64,000 bases of DNA from Actinomycetota bacterium (GTDB taxonomy: Bacteria > Actinomycetota > Acidimicrobiia > IMCC26256 > PALSA-555), in the NCBI GenBank assembly GCA_016870355.1, contig VGBR01000011.1, positions 33,140 to 97,139 on the forward strand, written 5' to 3'. Position 1 is the stretch's first letter; every line of letters starts with the position of its first letter. This document shows positions 1,440 through 53,899 of this stretch, one piece after another. Both the position numbers and the translations under genes were made by a program. The notes beneath the pieces were generated by a model that had not been told where the DNA came from, did no database searches, and saw nothing but the letters and a program-made list of their open reading frames with translations.

Positions 1440-1904
1440 ATGCCTGACGGGGCGCGTCTGGAGGTCGGTCGGATCGGCCGACCGCATGGCTTGAAGGGTG
1501 AGGTCACGGTGATGCTCGTGACCGATCGCCACGAGCGCCTCGATGACGGTGCACAGCTCTTCGCCGACGAGCGCACGCTGACCGTCGAGCACGCACGCCC
1601 CCAGCGCGACGGCTGGGTGGTTCGATTCCAAGGAGTCACCACTCGCGAAGGTGCGGAGGCATTGCGCGGCTTGATCCTCACGGCTGACCCGATCGACGCC
1701 GGTGACGATCCCTGGGTCCACGATCTCATCGGGTGCGAGGTGTCGGACGTGTCCGGTCGCGCGCTCGGCAGCGTCACTGCGGTCGAGGCCAACCCCGCGC
1801 ACGACCTGCTCGTCCTCGAAGGCGGCGCGCTCGTCCCGATGCCGTTCGTCGTCGAGCACGAACCCGGTCGTGTGGTCATCGATCCGCCAGAAGGATTGCT
1901 CTGA
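1440..1904 (+). CDS. rimM: 16S rRNA processing protein RimM
   Basis: VGRIGRPHGLKGEV N-terminus, DLIGCEV, PPEGLL end; synteny. Confidence 0.96.
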   Translation: MPDGARLEVGRIGRPHGLKGEVTVMLVTDRHERLDDGAQLFADERTLTVEHARPQRDGWVVRFQGVTTREGAEALRGLILTADPIDAGDDPWVHDLIGCEVSDVSGRALGSVTAVEANPAHDLLVLEGGALVPMPFVVEHEPGRVVIDPPEGLL

Positions 1905-1906
1905 CA

Positions 1907-1988
1907 TGAGCGAGCGACCGCGGCGCACGTATCGTGCGACGCAGCGAGCGGGGCCCAAAGCGGCCCGGCCCGCAGGGCCGAGAGCGGG
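1907..1988 (+). repeat. Dispersed ~80-bp palindromic repeat, family A, copy 1
   Basis: Shares TGAGCGAGCG, GCAGCGAGCGGGG and an identical 21-mer AGCGGCCCGGCCCGCAGGGCC with 53406-53486. Confidence 0.85.
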
Positions 1989-1989
1989 A

Positions 1990-2721
1990 ATGATGCGCAT
2001 CGACGTGTACACCGTCTTCCCCGAGTACCTCGAGGGTGCATTGTCGGCGTCGCTGCTCGGCAAGGCGCGCGCCGGTGGCCTGCTTGACGTGCGCATGCAC
2101 GACCCGCGTGACTGGTCGACCGACGCACACCGCAGCGTCGACGACGCGCCGTTCGGTGGTGGCGCGGGCATGGTGATGATGGCCGAGCCGCTGTTCGCGG
2201 CGGTGGAAGCCACCGAGCCGATCCGTCCACTTTTCCTGCTCTCGCCGAGCGGCCGACGCTTCGACCAGTCGCTCGCGAGAGAGCTCGTCGCCGGCGACGG
2301 CTTCTCGTTGGTGTGCGGCCGCTACGAAGGTGTTGACCAGCGCGTCGCGGAGCACCTCTGTGATGACGAGCTGTCGGTCGGCGACTACGTGCTCGCGGGT
2401 GGTGAGGCCGCGGCCCTGATCGTCATCGAGGCCGTCGCGCGCCTGGTGCCCGGCGTGCTCGGCAATGACGAGTCACCTGCGCACGAGTCGTTCACCGACG
2501 GCCTGCTCGAGGAACCGCAGTACACGCGCCCGGCCGAGTTCCGCGGTTGGGAGGTGCCCGAGGTGCTGCGCAGCGGCGACCACGGCCGCATCGAACAATG
2601 GCGGCGAGCCCAGGCGCTGCGGCGCACGCTCGCGCGACGCCCGGATCTGCTCGACGACTCATCGCTCAGCGTCGAGGACCAGGCGCTTCTCGAGGAGTTC
2701 CCTGCGCCCGAGGACGGCTGA
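1990..2721 (+). CDS. trmD: tRNA (guanine-N1)-methyltransferase TrmD
   Basis: [39 protein letters not shown] motifs; another in-frame ATG lies at 1906. Confidence 0.97.
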
Positions 2722-6213: not shown

Positions 6214-7709
6214 GGCACGTCTTCGCGCAGCAGTGCAGCCCACATGATGTGAGCTTCCAACACGTCGGCCACGTCATCGAGGTCTGCGATCGTTCGGGCG
6301 ACGCGTCGGACTCGTGCCGCGCCGCGTCCGGTCATGACCCGGAGCTCCGACTGTGCACGCCAGGCCGCGGCCGCGTCGCCCGACAGTGGGATCAGCCGCT
6401 CGAGCGCGCCGGCGGGGATGTGTCCGTTGTGCCGCCAGGGCGTGCCGGCGAGCCGAGCGGCCTGGCGCGCGACCGCGTTGATCACGCGGCCGCGCACGGA
6501 CTCAGACGTCTCGCCGGCCTGATCGTTGGCTTCGGGCGGGCGGACGGCAAGGCGAAGGTCGAACCGGTCGAGCAATGGTGCCGAGAGCCGGCGGCGATAG
6601 CGCGCCCGTTGGAACTCCGTGCACGAGCAGCCGGGCGGACCGAGCCCGCATGGGCATGGGTTGGTGCAGGCCACGAGCAGGAAGTCGGCTGGGAAGGTGA
6701 GCGTTCCCTGCTGACGGGAGATGCGCACGACCCGTTCCTCGAGCGGCTGACGCAACGCGTCGAGCGCCGATGGCGGGAACTCACCGAGCTCGTCGAGGAA
6801 CAAGATGCCGCGGTGCGCCATCGTCACCTCACCAGGTCGAGCGCGCGCCGCGCCGCCACCCACGAGTGCCGCGACGGATGCCGTGTGGTGCGGGGCGCGC
6901 ACCGGGACTGCGCGCATCAATCCGGCTGGCGCGCAGCCGGCGACGGAGTGAATCCGCGTCGTCTCGAACGCTTCGTCGTCGCGCAGCCTCGGCATGATCG
7001 TGGCCAGTCGCCGAGCGAGCATCGTCTTTCCGGCCCCCGGCGGACCCGAGAGCAACAAGTGGTGATGTCCCCCAGCCGCTACTTCGAGCGCGCGTCGCGC
7101 CCAGGTGAGCCCACGCACGTCGGCCAGATCGAGGGGATCCGCCTCATCATCGGCGAGATCGACGGGTGCCAGCGGTGGTGGTGGGTCCGGCCACGGCGCC
7201 TCGCCCTTGAGGCACGCGCGCAGCTCACCGAGCGTGCGCGCGACGCGCACGTGCAGGTCGGCCGCGAGCATCGCCTCGGAGGCACCGACCTCCGGGACGA
7301 TCACCGTGGTGATGCCCGCGCGCCGCAGCGCGTCGACGAACGCGAGCGTGCCGGGCACGGCGCGCACGGAGCCGTCGAGTCCGAGCTCGCCGACGACGCC
7401 GACTCCGTCGAGTACTCCCGCGGGGAGCTGGCCCTCGCCGAGGAGCAGGCCGAGCGCGACGGCGAGCTCGAACCCGGCGCCGGTCTTGCGCACTCCGCCA
7501 GGGGCCAGGTTGACGGTGATCCGCTGCTGTGGCCACGGCAGCTCTGACGACAGCAATGCGGCGCGCACTCGCTCTCGTGATTCGCGGACCGCGGTGTCGG
7601 GCAGCCCGACGACGTGGTACGCGGGCAGCCCCGGCGACACATGGACCTCGACGGTGACGACCTGCCCTTCGACTCCGAGCAGGGTGGCGCTGACGACCGA
7701 CGCGAGCAC
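6210..7709 (-). CDS. comM: YifB/ComM family Mg-chelatase-like AAA+ ATPase
   Basis: VGLPDTAVRESRERV, GPPGAGKT Walker A, LFLDE, NPCPCG; GGAGG RBS before GTG at 7709. Confidence 0.95.
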   Translation of the reverse strand: MLASVVSATLLGVEGQVVTVEVHVSPGLPAYHVVGLPDTAVRESRERVRAALLSSELPWPQQRITVNLAPGGVRKTGAGFELAVALGLLLGEGQLPAGVLDGVGVVGELGLDGSVRAVPGTLAFVDALRRAGITTVIVPEVGASEAMLAADLHVRVARTLGELRACLKGEAPWPDPPPPLAPVDLADDEADPLDLADVRGLTWARRALEVAAGGHHHLLLSGPPGAGKTMLARRLATIMPRLRDDEAFETTRIHSVAGCAPAGLMRAVPVRAPHHTASVAALVGGGAARARPGEVTMAHRGILFLDELGEFPPSALDALRQPLEERVVRISRQQGTLTFPADFLLVACTNPCPCGLGPPGCSCTEFQRARYRRRLSAPLLDRFDLRLAVRPPEANDQAGETSESVRGRVINAVARQAARLAGTPWRHNGHIPAGALERLIPLSGDAAAAWRAQSELRVMTGRGAARVRRVARTIADLDDVADVLEAHIMWAALLREDVP

Positions 7710-26173: not shown

Positions 26174-26950
26174 CTACTGGTGGAGGCCGCACTCCAGCTT
26201 GCCGGTGCCTGACCAGCGGCCGGCGCGGGGGTCTTCACCGGGCTCGATGGTGCGCGTGCACGGCCAGCAGCCGATCGAGCCGTAGCCGCGGTCGTGCAGC
26301 GGGTGGCGCGGGAGATCACGGTCGGCCTCGTACTGACGGACGTCGTGCTCGGTCCACGTGGCGATCGGGTTGACCTTCACCATGCCGCGACCGAGGTCGA
26401 ACGACACGATCGGCGCGTTGGCACGGGCCGGCGTCTCCTCGCGCCGCAGCCCTGACATCCACGCGTCCTTGCCAACGAGCGCGCGCTCGAGCGGTCCGAC
26501 CTTGCGGGCCGCGCAGCAGGTGTCGATGTCGGTCTTCCACCGGTCGTCGGGGTCGATGGCCGGGCGCACGATGTTGAGGTTGAGGTCGTAGCGCTCGCGC
26601 ACGTGCTCGACGTACCAGAGCGTCTCCGCGAAGTGGTACTGCGTGTCGAGGAACGCAATCTCGATCTCCGGCGCGACCTGCATGGCCAGATCGATCAGCA
26701 CGCAGTCCTGGAACGACGACGCCAGCGTCACATCCGGACCGAAGCGCTCCCATGCCCACTTGATGACCGTCGTGGCCGGCGCCGCCTCGAACTCCTTCGA
26801 GACCGTCGCCAGCTCACCCAGATCCGGGATCTCGTGCGGCGCGGCAACCGGAGCGAGGGGAGCGAGCGCAGGTTGCTCGCTCAGCGAGAGAGCGCCCGCG
26901 GCGGAGGTACCCTCCGCCGCAGCGAGCGAGCGAGACAAGGAGGCGCTCAT
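26174..26950 (-). CDS. cysH: APS/PAPS reductase CysH (Fe-S type)
   Basis: FLDTQYHFAET, CC..RK, GYGSIGCWPCT, ECGLH C-terminus. Confidence 0.95.
   Translation of the reverse strand: MSASLSRSLAAAEGTSAAGALSLSEQPALAPLAPVAAPHEIPDLGELATVSKEFEAAPATTVIKWAWERFGPDVTLASSFQDCVLIDLAMQVAPEIEIAFLDTQYHFAETLWYVEHVRERYDLNLNIVRPAIDPDDRWKTDIDTCCAARKVGPLERALVGKDAWMSGLRREETPARANAPIVSFDLGRGMVKVNPIATWTEHDVRQYEADRDLPRHPLHDRGYGSIGCWPCTRTIEPGEDPRAGRWSGTGKLECGLHQ
26878..26949 (-). repeat. 66-bp in-frame palindromic insert at the 5' end of cysH, flanked by TGAGCG direct repeats
   Basis: Central hairpin GCGGCGGAGG-TAC-CCTCCGCCGC; TGAGCG at 26949-26944 and 26883-26878. Confidence 0.65.
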
Positions 26951-28722
26951 GTGGCGCACTCCGAGTCGCCGACCTGTGCCTCGTACGGACCGGTCTCGTC
27001 GAAGTCGACGTAGAAGTCGGGCGCATCGTCGGGCGTCGGGAACTCGTCGAGGTCCTTGAGCCCGTCGCCGACTCCCTTCGCACCGCCGCTGCGGCCAAGC
27101 CAGTCGGTGAACGTCTCACCCGCTGAGCGCTCGTTCGCGAAGCGGTCGACGACGCGCACGACGGCCTGAGCGGCCGCCTTCGCCGGCACCTTGGAAGCCT
27201 TCTCGCCGAACGCGATCTCCATCTGACCGACGCGGCCGCCGAGGAACATCTGGTACCCAGGCGCGGAGCGACCGTGGGCGCGCCGCTCGAGTCCGCAGAA
27301 GCCGATGTCGGAGATGTGGTGCTGACCGCACGAGTTCGTGCAGCCCGAGATGTTGACGCGCACGCCACCGACCTCGGCGAGGCCTGCCTCGTCGAGCGCG
27401 CGGCCGATGTCGGCTGCGAGGCCGCGTGACTGGGTGACCGCGAGGTTGCAGGTGTCGGCACCCGGGCACGCCACCACGTCACGGGCGAGCTCTGCACCGG
27501 CTTCGGCCATGTCCAGCGCGGCGAGCCGCTCGTGCAGCTCGGGGAGCTGGTCCTCGGTGAGGCCGCGGAGCACGAAGTTCTGGCGGTTCGTGATGCGAAC
27601 CTCGACGCCGAAGTCCTGCTGCACCGCAACCAAGCCGCGGAACTGCGCGGTGGTGATGTCGCCGAGGCGGCAGTAGGCGTAGGCGCTCACGGTGCCGTTG
27701 GCGCGGCCGCGCACCACGTTCGCCAGCTCCCACTTGTTGTAGGGGTCGAGTCCCTTGAGCTCCACGGGCACGCCGTCGGCCGGGGTGGTGCTCATGCCCG
27801 CGGGCGCGTCGCCGTGCTCGGCAACCGGCGCGGGGATGCCGCCGGGGTACGACGACGATGCGATCAGGAACTTGCGCTCCTTGATGATCCGCTCGCGCAG
27901 CTCGTCGATGCCCATCGTGTCGACGAGCCACTTGAGCCGGGCGCGCAGCTTGTTGTCACGGTTGCCGTGGTGGTCCTGCACGCGCAGGATCGCCTCGATC
28001 GTCGGCAGCAGGTCGTCGCGTGAGGTGAACTCCTCCAGCGCCTGCGCGGGGTGCGGGTTCGCGCCGAGTCCACCGGCCATGAACACCCGGAACCCGGGCT
28101 CCACCGAACCGTCGGGCAACGGACGGCTGACGGCGATCACGCCGACGTCGTTGAACATCGCCTGGCCGCAGTCGGTGGCGCAGCCGGAGAAGTTGATCTT
28201 GAACTTGCGGGGGAGGCGCTGCGCGATCGGGTTGCGCAGGAAGAGGTCCTTGGCGGCCTCGGCCCACGGGCTGATGTCGAGCACCTCGTACGGGCACGCG
28301 CCGGCGAGGTGGCAGCCGGCGACGTTGCGCACGGTGTCGCCGCACGCCTCGCGGCTGGTCATGCCGACCGACGCGAGCAACCGCAGTGCCTCGGCCGTCT
28401 GCTCGAGCTCGACGAAGTGGAACTGCACGTTCTGGCGCGTAGTGAGGTGACCCCAGCCGCGGGAGAAGTTCTCCGCGATGTACGCCATCATCTCGAGCTG
28501 GTCGGGCTCGACGCGACCGTACGGGATCTTGACGCGCAGCATCTGGTTGTGGCCGCCTTGACGCTGGCCGTAGATGCCCTGGTTCAAACGGAACACGCGG
28601 AAGGCGTCCTCGTCGATCTCGCCCGCGAGGTACTTGCGCACACCCTCTTGGAAGCGATCGAGCTCGGCCTCGATCTCGGGCTCGAGCGGGCGGACGCGCA
28701 GGGAGGTGACGTCGATGCTCAT
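26947..28722 (-). CDS. sir: Ferredoxin-dependent sulfite/nitrite reductase (siroheme)
   Basis: GIYGQRQ, HLTTRQNVQ, LPRKFK, ACPGADTC, SGCTNSCGQH; coupled to cysH. Confidence 0.92.
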   Translation of the reverse strand: MSIDVTSLRVRPLEPEIEAELDRFQEGVRKYLAGEIDEDAFRVFRLNQGIYGQRQGGHNQMLRVKIPYGRVEPDQLEMMAYIAENFSRGWGHLTTRQNVQFHFVELEQTAEALRLLASVGMTSREACGDTVRNVAGCHLAGACPYEVLDISPWAEAAKDLFLRNPIAQRLPRKFKINFSGCATDCGQAMFNDVGVIAVSRPLPDGSVEPGFRVFMAGGLGANPHPAQALEEFTSRDDLLPTIEAILRVQDHHGNRDNKLRARLKWLVDTMGIDELRERIIKERKFLIASSSYPGGIPAPVAEHGDAPAGMSTTPADGVPVELKGLDPYNKWELANVVRGRANGTVSAYAYCRLGDITTAQFRGLVAVQQDFGVEVRITNRQNFVLRGLTEDQLPELHERLAALDMAEAGAELARDVVACPGADTCNLAVTQSRGLAADIGRALDEAGLAEVGGVRVNISGCTNSCGQHHISDIGFCGLERRAHGRSAPGYQMFLGGRVGQMEIAFGEKASKVPAKAAAQAVVRVVDRFANERSAGETFTDWLGRSGGAKGVGDGLKDLDEFPTPDDAPDFYVDFDETGPYEAQVGDSECAT

Positions 28723-52595: not shown

Positions 52596-53408
52596 GTGAT
52601 CAGAGTCGGTGTGTTCGGTGCCGGTGGGCGCATGGGCTCCACCGTGTGCAGCGCCGTCGCGGCGGATCCCGAACTGGAGCTCGTTGCCGCGGTCGACCCG
52701 TACCACGAGGGCATCGACCTGACGCAGCTCGGCGTTCCCGACACGGGGTTGACGGTGAACCGAGCGGTCGACACGTTCGCGGAGCAGGGCGTCGATGTTG
52801 CCGTCGACTTCACGGTCCTCGACGCGGCACGCGACAACATCGCGTGGTGCGCTGACCACGGTGTGCACGCGGTCGTCGGCACGACGGGCTTCACCGAAGA
52901 CGAGCTCGATCAGCTGCGCGTGCGCTTTCTGAACGCCGCCGCGAACGCGGTGATCGTGCCCAACTTCGCGATCGGTGCGGTGCTGATGATGCGGTTCGCC
53001 GAGCTGGCCGCGCCGTACTTCGACACCGCCGAGATCATCGAGATGCACCATGACGAGAAGGTGGATGCCCCGTCGGGCACCGCGATGCTCACCGCCCAAC
53101 GCATGGCCCAGGCGTCGAGCAGCTGGGGGAAGGACCCCACCGAGAAGGTCGTGATCGAAGGCGCCCGCGGCGGCGAGGGACCCGGCGGCATCCACATCCA
53201 CTCCGTCCGCATGCGCGGAGCCGTCGCGCACCAAGAGGTGGTGCTCGGCACGACGGGTCAGTCGCTGACGATCCGCCACGACTCCTACGAGCGGACCTCG
53301 TTCATGCCCGGCGTGCTGCTCGCGATCCGCGCGGTCCGCGAGCGCCCCGGCCTCACCATCGGCCTCGCCGCCCTCCTCGGCCTCGAAGGGAAGGTGGGGA
53401 AAGCCTGA
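52596..53408 (+). CDS. dapB: 4-hydroxy-tetrahydrodipicolinate reductase
   Basis: GAGGRMG, VDFT, VVGTTG, EMHH..KVDAPSGTA. Confidence 0.97.
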   Translation: MIRVGVFGAGGRMGSTVCSAVAADPELELVAAVDPYHEGIDLTQLGVPDTGLTVNRAVDTFAEQGVDVAVDFTVLDAARDNIAWCADHGVHAVVGTTGFTEDELDQLRVRFLNAAANAVIVPNFAIGAVLMMRFAELAAPYFDTAEIIEMHHDEKVDAPSGTAMLTAQRMAQASSSWGKDPTEKVVIEGARGGEGPGGIHIHSVRMRGAVAHQEVVLGTTGQSLTIRHDSYERTSFMPGVLLAIRAVRERPGLTIGLAALLGLEGKVGKA

Positions 53409-53486
53409 GCGAGCGGCCGCGGCGCGGGTCTCCGCGCTGCAGCGAGCGGGGGCTCGAGCGGCCCGGCCCGCAGGGCCCAGAGCAGG
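53406..53486 (+). repeat. Dispersed ~80-bp palindromic repeat, family A, copy 2
   Basis: Aligns with 1907-1988; its first TGA is the dapB stop codon. Confidence 0.85.
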
Positions 53487-53504
53487 TAAGTAGGGTCACG
53501 CCCC

Positions 53505-53899
53505 GTGACGGGGGATGCCCCCCAGGGGGGAACGGGCGGCGCGCCGCTGTTGGCGTTGCGGAACCTGGAGGTCGTGTACGGCGGCTCCATCCGAGTGCTG
53601 CGCGGCGTCAGTCGGGATGTGCCCGCGGGCAAGGTCGTCAGGCGATGGCGCAGGTGCTCGAGCAGGCCGTGAAGAGCGGCGACCTCAGCCGCGCTGGAGT
53701 CCCGGCGGCGGTCGCCAAGATCAAGAAGCTGACCTTCGACGGCCTCGACGAGGACTACAAGTACGGCAACCCGGCGAAGCGCAACCCGCCACGGGCCACG
53801 GCCGTGCTCTCGGTCGACCCGGCCGGTCCGGTGGGTCTCGCGATCCTCGGTGAGCAGACCGCATCCGAGGCAGCCACGAAGTACAAGATCGAAGACTGA
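53505..53899 (+). pseudogene. Remnant of a branched-chain-type ABC operon: ATPase 5' end joined out of frame to a substrate-binding protein 3' end
   Basis: LLALRNLEVVY..IRVLRGVS.DVPAGKVV ends before Walker A; QVLEQAVKSGDLSRAG.. follows in another frame; junction near 53638. Confidence 0.75.

Follow-up and report, generated by a model that had tools for sequence, protein, structure and literature searches.

Repetitive extragenic palindromic (REP) sequences are single palindromes of 20–40 nt, usually 3′ of genes, which can take either orientation or form inverted doublets, and which are mobilised by RAYT proteins. Bacterial MITEs (miniature inverted-repeat transposable elements, such as Correia/NEMIS, ERIC and RUP) are non-autonomous units of ~100 nt that make short target duplications, are co-transcribed with their neighbours and can alter expression. 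Rickettsia palindromic elements (RPEs) are structured repeats that can lie inside open reading frames (ORFs) and be translated, and integron attC sites are imperfect hairpins of 60–140 nt, defined by structure, which stand in one orientation at the 3′ end of an ORF and before the next, and are recombined at a 3-nt core, which then lies on both sides. Mycobacterial interspersed repetitive units (MIRUs) are repeats of 40–100 bp between operon genes; a 2025 review (PMC12548453), crediting Supply et al. 1997, describes them as apparently mobile and as going into start codons with hardly any disturbance of the target's expression. We analysed a 64,000-nt stretch of DNA, hereafter the window, from the lake genome of an uncultured member of the Acidimicrobiales (Acidimicrobiia), in which positions 1905–1993, between rimM and trmD, are probably a copy of a non-autonomous, MIRU-like structured interspersed repeat of this order. 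On our best reading the repeat forms a new family of a kind already known, which we liken to MIRUs by description only.

Like MIRUs, the element lies between co-directional operon genes (20 of 38 full copies in the source genome of the window, G000), including six junctions of the S10/spc ribosomal-protein operon; it occurs at start codons and stop/start overlaps, once as a threefold tandem array, and its host is actinobacterial. It differs in that the −4 coupled ORF that defines MIRUs is not conserved, although single copies such as that at rplO fit, in having a covarying three-hairpin fold with a Shine–Dalgarno (SD)-like tail, and in spanning an order of Acidimicrobiia. To our knowledge, MIRUs are not known for a well-defined covarying structure. 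With REP/BIME and REPIN-RAYT systems the element has in common that it is extragenic, multi-copy, structured and found within operons, and that compensatory changes keep its hairpins. Unlike REPs it is 85 nt long, contains three different hairpins, stands in sense orientation in 32/38 copies and abuts start codons, and unlike REPIN-RAYT systems it has no Y1 transposase in G000 or in 56 of 61 relatives. For REP elements an effect on mRNA decay is proposed in a part of bioRxiv 10.64898/2026.03.23.713779. The element resembles MITEs in being non-autonomous and of similar length. MITEs differ from it in their terminal inverted repeats, which are not visible here, and in their relation to insertion sequences, no related one having been found; its stop/start target and fixed orientation are further differences. 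Resemblance to RPEs lies in translated copies, module A of the element being read into the tail of RplD and DapB gaining 7 residues; unlike RPEs, copies are mostly intercistronic, and lineage and sequence are unrelated. The likeness to attC is one of working only: no cassette array, integrase context or GTTRRRY core was seen, and copies are scattered among housekeeping operons. Unlike a riboswitch or gene-specific leader, the element has neither a coherent gene set nor a conserved orthologous position.

Size, spread and structure of the family

A preliminary description of the window, made from its letters alone, had reported two copies of the repeat and read them as a non-autonomous mobile element with compensated hairpins. 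Its coordinates for copy 1, the sequences common to both copies (TGAGCGAGCG, a 10-mer; GCAGCGAGCGGGG, a 13-mer; and the 21-mer AGCGGCCCGGCCCGCAGGGCC) and the differing middle hairpins (GCACG-TAT-CGTGC in copy 1, GCGCGG-GTCT-CCGCGC in copy 2) all check out in the sequence, and a repeat search pairs 1936–1988 with 53434–53486 (family D19; 53 nt, 85% identity). The family proved to be real, dispersed and far larger than two copies. Searching G000 (2.82 Mb, 31 contigs, 96% complete) with blastn and then with nhmmer from a 13-copy seed gave 65 matches at E < 1e-3, of which 38 are full length; copy 1 scored E = 2.4e-17 and copy 2 E = 3.3e-13, and the covariance model R1 gave 87.3 bits for copy 1 (1903–1999). 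These E-values and the R1 scores place the likeness of the two copies far beyond chance.

R1 found at least 61 matches in G000 among the best 68 candidates scored, and it matched 34 of the order's 61 sampled genomes, which are distributed over 18 of 32 genera and often have tens of matches each: at least 68 in a congener (G001), at least 63 in G057 and at least 62 in G029. Genome searches scored the best 68–150 candidates, so that copy numbers are lower bounds, and the relatives are not independent samples. All seven genomes of one genus (g8) were without R1 matches. Matches in G000 that are not full length are mostly the first hairpin alone, inside a second, related family. Most loci hold a single copy; truncated and chimeric copies occur, and three head-to-tail units with an 88-nt period form an array at G000:C4:229303-229531, in which the two complete units are identical and which is followed by a glyoxalase-family gene. 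No Rfam 15 model matches the window at gathering score, and a search of four loci with E up to 10 gave two chance-level matches (E = 4.6 and 8.4) elsewhere in the loci. We found no description of the repeat family in the literature, and the sections seen of a genome-language-model preprint mention neither Acidimicrobiia nor Actinomycetota. A weak R1 match at 6690–6781 of the window (E = 0.27) was set aside as apparent coding sequence.

From 5′ to 3′ the unit of ~85 nt consists of a stop, T(G/A)A, which lies at its 5′ edge or straddles it, helices P1/P2, hairpins P3 and P4, and the tail GAGAGCGGGAR; it has no ORF of its own and is too small for autonomy. A four-helix structure was tested on an alignment (A1) of 34 full copies. 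P1 pairs GGCGAGC with GCGAGCC around a central tandem G·A, P2 has 10 bp and a UAY triloop, P3 is GGGCC-CGAGC-GGCCC, with the loop CGAGC in 27/34 copies, and P4 is GGCSC-GCA-GSGCC, in which GGCCC/GGGCC alternates with GGCGC/GCGCC (pair 70–76 reads GC in 16 copies, CG in 14). Standard pairs fill 94.4% of 836 pair cells, compared with 33–44% when the 3′ partners are slid by 1–3 columns. Both sides have changed at 19 of 25 pairs, among them 5/5 in helix 1 and 7/10 in helix 2, which bears out the compensated hairpins of the preliminary description; none of 500 shuffles reached any of the five structure measures, and RNAalifold independently recovered P2, P3 and P4. Tandem G·A is present in 28/34 copies and replaced by U-A/A-U in two, and GGCGAGCC is the classic context of sheared tandem G·A pairs.

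G-U combinations occupy 23 cells and A-C combinations 16, nine of the latter in the doubtful pair 7–48; leaving aside this pair and 50–64, which is also doubtful, the counts are 17 vs 7. The strand asymmetry is modest, and the structure would be best placed on the sense strand, RNA and single-stranded DNA being indistinguishable in this respect. Single-sequence folds were no more stable than shuffles (z = −0.32 for copy 1 and −0.33 for copy 2; antisense, −1.26 and −0.14). Folding energy is unexceptional for the GC content, and the structural evidence is therefore covariation and not stability. Two further pairings were not adopted: GAGCGG of the tail with CCGC at the base of P2, and the pairs 8–85 and 9–84 of RNAalifold, neither of which can show covariation in a tail that is nearly invariant. 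The 3′ end of the G000 16S rRNA contains CCTCC; the GGGAG form of the tail has a GGAG core able to pair with CCUCC, and the GGGAA form pairs less well. A purine tail next to the start codon suggests independent initiation rather than coupling. Longer variants of 106–141 nt (L036–L038; G000:C11:23655-23795) carry an extra segment, such as ...CGTTCGCCGAGATGGAGTGGAGCGG..., between module A, the long P1/P2 hairpin, and P4, and are modular rearrangements within the family.

Gene junctions, empty sites and putative target duplications

The element is sense-oriented and lies exactly where the stop of one gene meets the start of its successor. Using our own gene calls, which were based on GC content at third codon positions, we found a co-directional ORF starting within 50 nt downstream of 32/38 full copies in G000; the remaining six are an inner unit of the tandem array, copy 2 (which precedes a gene remnant) and four copies lacking a clear co-directional gene. 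In 23/38 the start codon falls −3 to +8 nt from model position 85, right after the tail. Upstream, a co-directional ORF ends within 20 nt of the element in 20/38 copies, and the upstream gene is divergent in 11/38. Twenty-seven of 29 downstream ORFs matched a Pfam family and two did not; matches often begin at profile position 1–2 (SMC_N, Glyco_hydro_4, CoA_binding, OTCace_N, adh_short), which supports the start assignments. The downstream genes are functionally unrelated: trmD, ffh, smc, sucD, ctaD, ilvD, purE, purQ, a pyrB/argF-type carbamoyltransferase gene, rplF, rplO, glnA, two GH4 genes and others. In G041, from another taxonomic family, an upstream stop (TGA, TAA or TAG) abuts the element in 16 of 22 copies of this family (family A), and a start follows within 12 nt in 11 of the 22. 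The sense copies of G000 and the abutting stops of G041 thus uphold the proposed bias for stop/start junctions.

At rimM|trmD, a C at 1905 follows the rimM stop, and ATG 1906–1908 overlaps TGA 1907–1909; at the other end TGA 1991–1993 overlaps the trmD start as TGATG, and TrmD orthologs begin MRIDV or VRIDV. ATGA abuts both ends of copy 1 directly. The stretch 1716–2525 is spanned without any difference by an 810-nt contig (X11) of an independent run, and the insertion is therefore not an assembly artefact. Among 30 rimM|trmD loci, R1 matched in G000 only. The spacers of the 29 relatives range from −8 to +1 up to 26 nt, apart from a single one of 159 nt that has no R1 match, and in G001 the junction reads ctcTGATGcgc, the exact empty site, TGATG, predicted by the preliminary description. 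By this comparison the insertion appears specific to the lineage of this species.

Occupancy differs at other junctions as well. Over 40 kb of synteny between G000 and G001, at ~80% nucleotide identity, it is one-sided at rpmF|plsX, ffh and trmD and for a partial copy on the minus strand, G001 alone has a further copy, and the copy upstream of smc is common to both (G000:C11:27139-27234; G001:C15:45978-46073). Across the S10/spc operon of 19 genomes, basal spacers measure ~−13 to +57 nt, and a different set of junctions is expanded to 61–190 nt in each genome: W|B, V|C, C|P, X|E, H|F and rpmD|rplO in G000; C|P, X|E, R|E and E|D in G001. R1 matches only part of these expansions, so other repeat families take part. 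In the G000 operon (L165; G000:C3:219000-230000), members of the present family stand at rplD|rplW, rplW|rplB, rplV|rpsC, rplX|rplE, rpsH|rplF and rpmD|rplO, and congeners hold members at other junctions. The rpsC|rplP junction (L165 4216–4304; also L166 and L167) has a different, GGAGCG-rich spacer of 89–190 nt, ...GGAGCGAACGCAGCGGATGGAGCGAAGCGGAAGTAGCGGAGTGGGAGCGCAGCAA..., present in G000–G002, absent from G003 and without an R1 match. Module A also encodes the C-terminal tail of RplD (L4) in G000, G001, G003 and G019, in a reading frame that differs between G000 and G001 (L165 ~840–900; rplD 3′ ends in L166, L168 and L175).

The most frequent landing site is a TGATG, ATGA or TAGTG overlap, and the flanks usually carry an apparent 3–4 nt duplication (TGA, ATGA, GTGA or TAG). 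Our argument for duplication rests on filled and empty pairs and not on a generic flank search. A direct repeat of 3–4 nt of the stop/start letters flanks the insert in 9–10 of 12 such pairs, and 7 of 10 empty sites are stop/start overlaps (TGATG, ATGA or TAGTG). Duplicated letters are ATGA at rplO, where three congeners have the empty site gcATGAcc, GTGA at ffh, ATGA at trmD, (G)ATG at rpsC and rpmD, TAG at rpsE, TGA at rplE, in two families, and TGAG at the copy present in G001 only. The 5′ edge of the element varies by up to 8 nt.

These observations fit a process in which integration would target the letters of a stop codon in one orientation, selection removing insertions elsewhere. The upstream ORF would keep, or receive, a stop at the left edge, and the downstream ORF would keep its start at the right edge and gain an SD-like site from the tail, such that an overlapping, coupled gene pair becomes a pair with a folded spacer between them and independent initiation. 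The hairpins would fold in the sense strand, whether of mRNA or of single-stranded DNA, and might be needed for mobilisation, or insulate or stabilise the transcript between cistrons; the activity that mobilises the element would act in trans. The preliminary description held that insertion is tolerated because rimM/trmD coupling survives. This is unlikely: ~85 nt of hairpins now lie between the rimM stop and the trmD start, translational coupling needs overlaps or very short distances according to a passage in PMC10666635, and structures just after stop codons govern re-initiation according to part of PMC7518266.

Weighing the alternatives

Several results weigh against a mobile element. That the element is transcribed, that it folds and that its tail serves as an SD site are predictions from sequence. 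Between the orthologous smc copies of G000 and G001 there are two compensatory double changes (pairs 9–46 and 25–33), two changes that preserve pairing by way of G-U and none that is disruptive, which points to selection on the fold of resident copies, and hence a host-level function, or else to gene conversion. Mean identity between copies is 0.77 within G000, 0.85 within G041 and 0.79 between the two, with no clustering by genome, and for 32 of 49 copies the most similar other copy comes from the same genome, where roughly 28 would be expected; this looks less like recent bursts than like old copies under constraint. Duplication is absent at rplF and plsX (2/12 filled/empty pairs), some "duplications" may be element sequence, since one subfamily has TGA in its consensus, and a generic comparison of flanks gives a weak signal, with a mean length of 4.09 for the longest shared word vs 3.65 in mismatched pairs. 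No joint skipping 1905–1993, and thus no empty-site allele or excision within the species, was seen in the contigs of four DNA runs, most of whose listed joints come from other organisms at 90% likeness, so that the absence of an empty allele does not follow. Of PF01797, PF01548, PF07282, PF00078 and PF01609, none is present in all four of G000, G001, G041 and G057, which are rich in the element. The families searched included IS110-type transposases, of which G000 has a fragment of 77 positions only, TnpB, reverse transcriptase and DDE_Tnp_1, with no match to the last in G000 or G001. The RAYT/IS200-type partner that the preliminary description had suggested was not found: G000, at 96% completeness, has no RAYT/Y1 transposase (PF01797), and only 5 of 61 relatives have one, three of which carry the element. 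When the ends were compared by eye in alignment A1, no terminal inverted repeats were seen; what likeness the ends have is in direct orientation (GCGAGCG and CGAGAGCG).

Such constraint would suit a host cis-regulatory leader or intercistronic expression element, that is, a structured RNA to which a shared protein, RNase or small ligand would bind, recruited before many genes and not actively mobile, which exerts post-transcriptional control or punctuates the mRNA. We consider this quite unlikely. In its favour are the sense orientation at the ribosome-binding site in 32/38 copies, positions that are near-invariant across the order (the identity of 0.79 between G000 and G041 copies stands beside a TrmD protein identity of 74%), the compensatory changes at smc, the tandem G·A, a typical protein-binding feature, and the fact that no tested transposase tracks the element. 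It does not account for downstream genes without common function, or for orthologous junctions that hold the element in one congener and lack it in another (0/29 relatives at rimM|trmD), and the threefold array, the truncated and chimeric copies, the absorption into coding tails and the element-free genera suit repeat dynamics more than a regulon. Mobility is still compatible with such a role; a domesticated mobile element would satisfy both. A bolder form of the mobile reading makes the repeat a self-spreading "gene punctuation cassette" of stop, insulating hairpins and ribosome-binding site, targeted to the stop codon of stop/start overlaps by a host-encoded or orphan recombinase with a TGA-type core, and co-opted order-wide to uncouple coupled genes and expose dozens of housekeeping mRNAs, including six ribosomal-protein operon junctions, to one common RNA-binding factor or RNase. 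This possibility is an unlikely one.

The remaining readings give the repeat a coding or a promoter role. ATG 1906 stands 84 nt, or 28 codons, before ATG 1990 in the same frame, which has been open since 1702 and passes into trmD without an intervening stop, and the native GAAGGA lies 9–10 nt before ATG 1906, the spacing of the SD at the empty site (GAAGG, G001). Translation might then start at ATG 1906 and either run into trmD, adding 28–29 residues, or, as in MIRUs, stop at the TGA that overlaps the true start and re-initiate; read by eye, the frame that begins with the left ATG of the rplO copy closes at the TGA within the ATGA start overlap, and many right ends read TGATG, ATGA or GTGA. 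The preliminary description gave weight to the in-frame ATG 1906, but it has no general meaning: copies differ by 1–2 nt insertions or deletions, and the offsets between upstream stop and downstream frame are 4/8/8 over 20 copies. Open frames are moreover expected from a GC-rich consensus with almost no stops in any frame, conservation tracks base pairs and not codons, and the upstream gene is divergent in 11/38 copies. We give this reading little credence. The actinobacterial −10 pattern is TANNNT, and the P2 loop, as TACCCT or TATCGT, could be taken for the −10 hexamer of a portable promoter whose transcript would have P3, P4 and the tail as its leader. Conservation is at least 90% at T28 and A29, 30/34 copies have TAC or TAT as the loop, and the 11 copies in divergent regions lie upstream of first genes. 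Promoter and terminator scans found nothing, including a sigma-70-type scan of 1600–2300; four copies have G-C and not A-U at pair 25–33, which destroys the final T of the hexamer, copy 2 has no TA at all, six copies lie inside a ribosomal-protein operon, and the covariation of P1/P2 is left unexplained. A promoter is scarcely credible.

As a MIRU-like mobile repeat, the element would extend the idea of start-codon insertion without harm to expression to another actinobacterial class. It would also offer a natural experiment on translational coupling, since orthologous gene pairs of close relatives either overlap (TGATG/ATGA) or hold an 85-nt folded spacer with its own ribosome-binding site, even in the ribosomal-protein operon, and its stop-codon targeting with no known transposase that tracks it poses a concrete mechanistic question. 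In practice, such repeats break metagenome assemblies, contigs ending inside the element, and mislead gene callers, as with the open frame from 1702 and the C-terminal extensions of DapB and RplD.

Features of the window and a second family

Table 1. Coordinates of the repeat copies, their parts and adjoining genes in the window
Feature	Position	Strand	Details
rimM ORF	1440..1904	+	own stop TGA 1902–1904; ORF list; tblastn orthologs in 29 relatives
Inserted block, element plus duplicated (A)TGA	1905..1993	+	junction comparison: absent from G001 (ctcTGATGcgc)
Left ATGA	1906..1909	+	repeated as ATGA 1990–1993; read as left copy of the target duplication
Module A, long hairpin	1910..1949	+	covariation; minimum free energy fold recovers P2
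P1	1910–1915 with 1944–1949	+	tandem G·A at 1912–1913 with 1946–1947
P2	1920–1929 with 1933–1942	+	loop UAU 1930–1932
Hairpin P3	1951..1966	+	GGGCC 1951–1955 with GGCCC 1962–1966; 6-nt loop in copy 1
Hairpin P4	1967..1979	+	GGCCC-GCA-GGGCC
Unpaired purine tail GAGAGCGGGAA	1980..1990	+	SD-like, directly 5′ of start codons; conserved
trmD	1993..2721	+	ATG 1993, MRIDV; ATG 1990 alternative; Pfam tRNA_m1G_MT, E = 1.6e-25
Module-A hairpin of second family	26890..26925	+	partial R1 match, model positions 10–45, 35.3 bits
dapB	~52596..53408	+	stop is the element's TGA 53406–53408; last 7 codons EGKVGKA and stop not in G001
Copy 2	53402..53497 (core 53406–53488)	+	R1 75.2 bits; degenerate tail CAGAGCAGGTAA; truncated ABC-ATPase gene fragment follows

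DapB of G001 ends 7 codons earlier, at a TGA of its own. Comparison of the two genes indicates that the element has replaced the native dapB stop and added 7 residues, and the proposal that copy 2 supplies this stop is confirmed by the end of the ORF and the earlier stop in G001. Downstream of copy 2, ~6.5 kb that follow dapB in G001 (G001:C15:103468-110039) are missing from G000 at window positions 53489–53660. The remnant there is an N-terminal ABC-transporter ATPase fragment, to which the C-terminal portion of a gene for a substrate-binding protein is joined near 53640.

The second family is represented in the window at 26840–26952. It has the P1/P2 hairpin in common with the first; a small hairpin, GAGCGAGCGCAGGTTGCTCGCTC, stands before it, and after it come AAGGAGG, 6 nt and ATG 26950. 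"Half" matches of this kind are numerous across the genome; in G041 the 5′ flank of the second family is conserved, and one copy stands before an rpsM-like gene.

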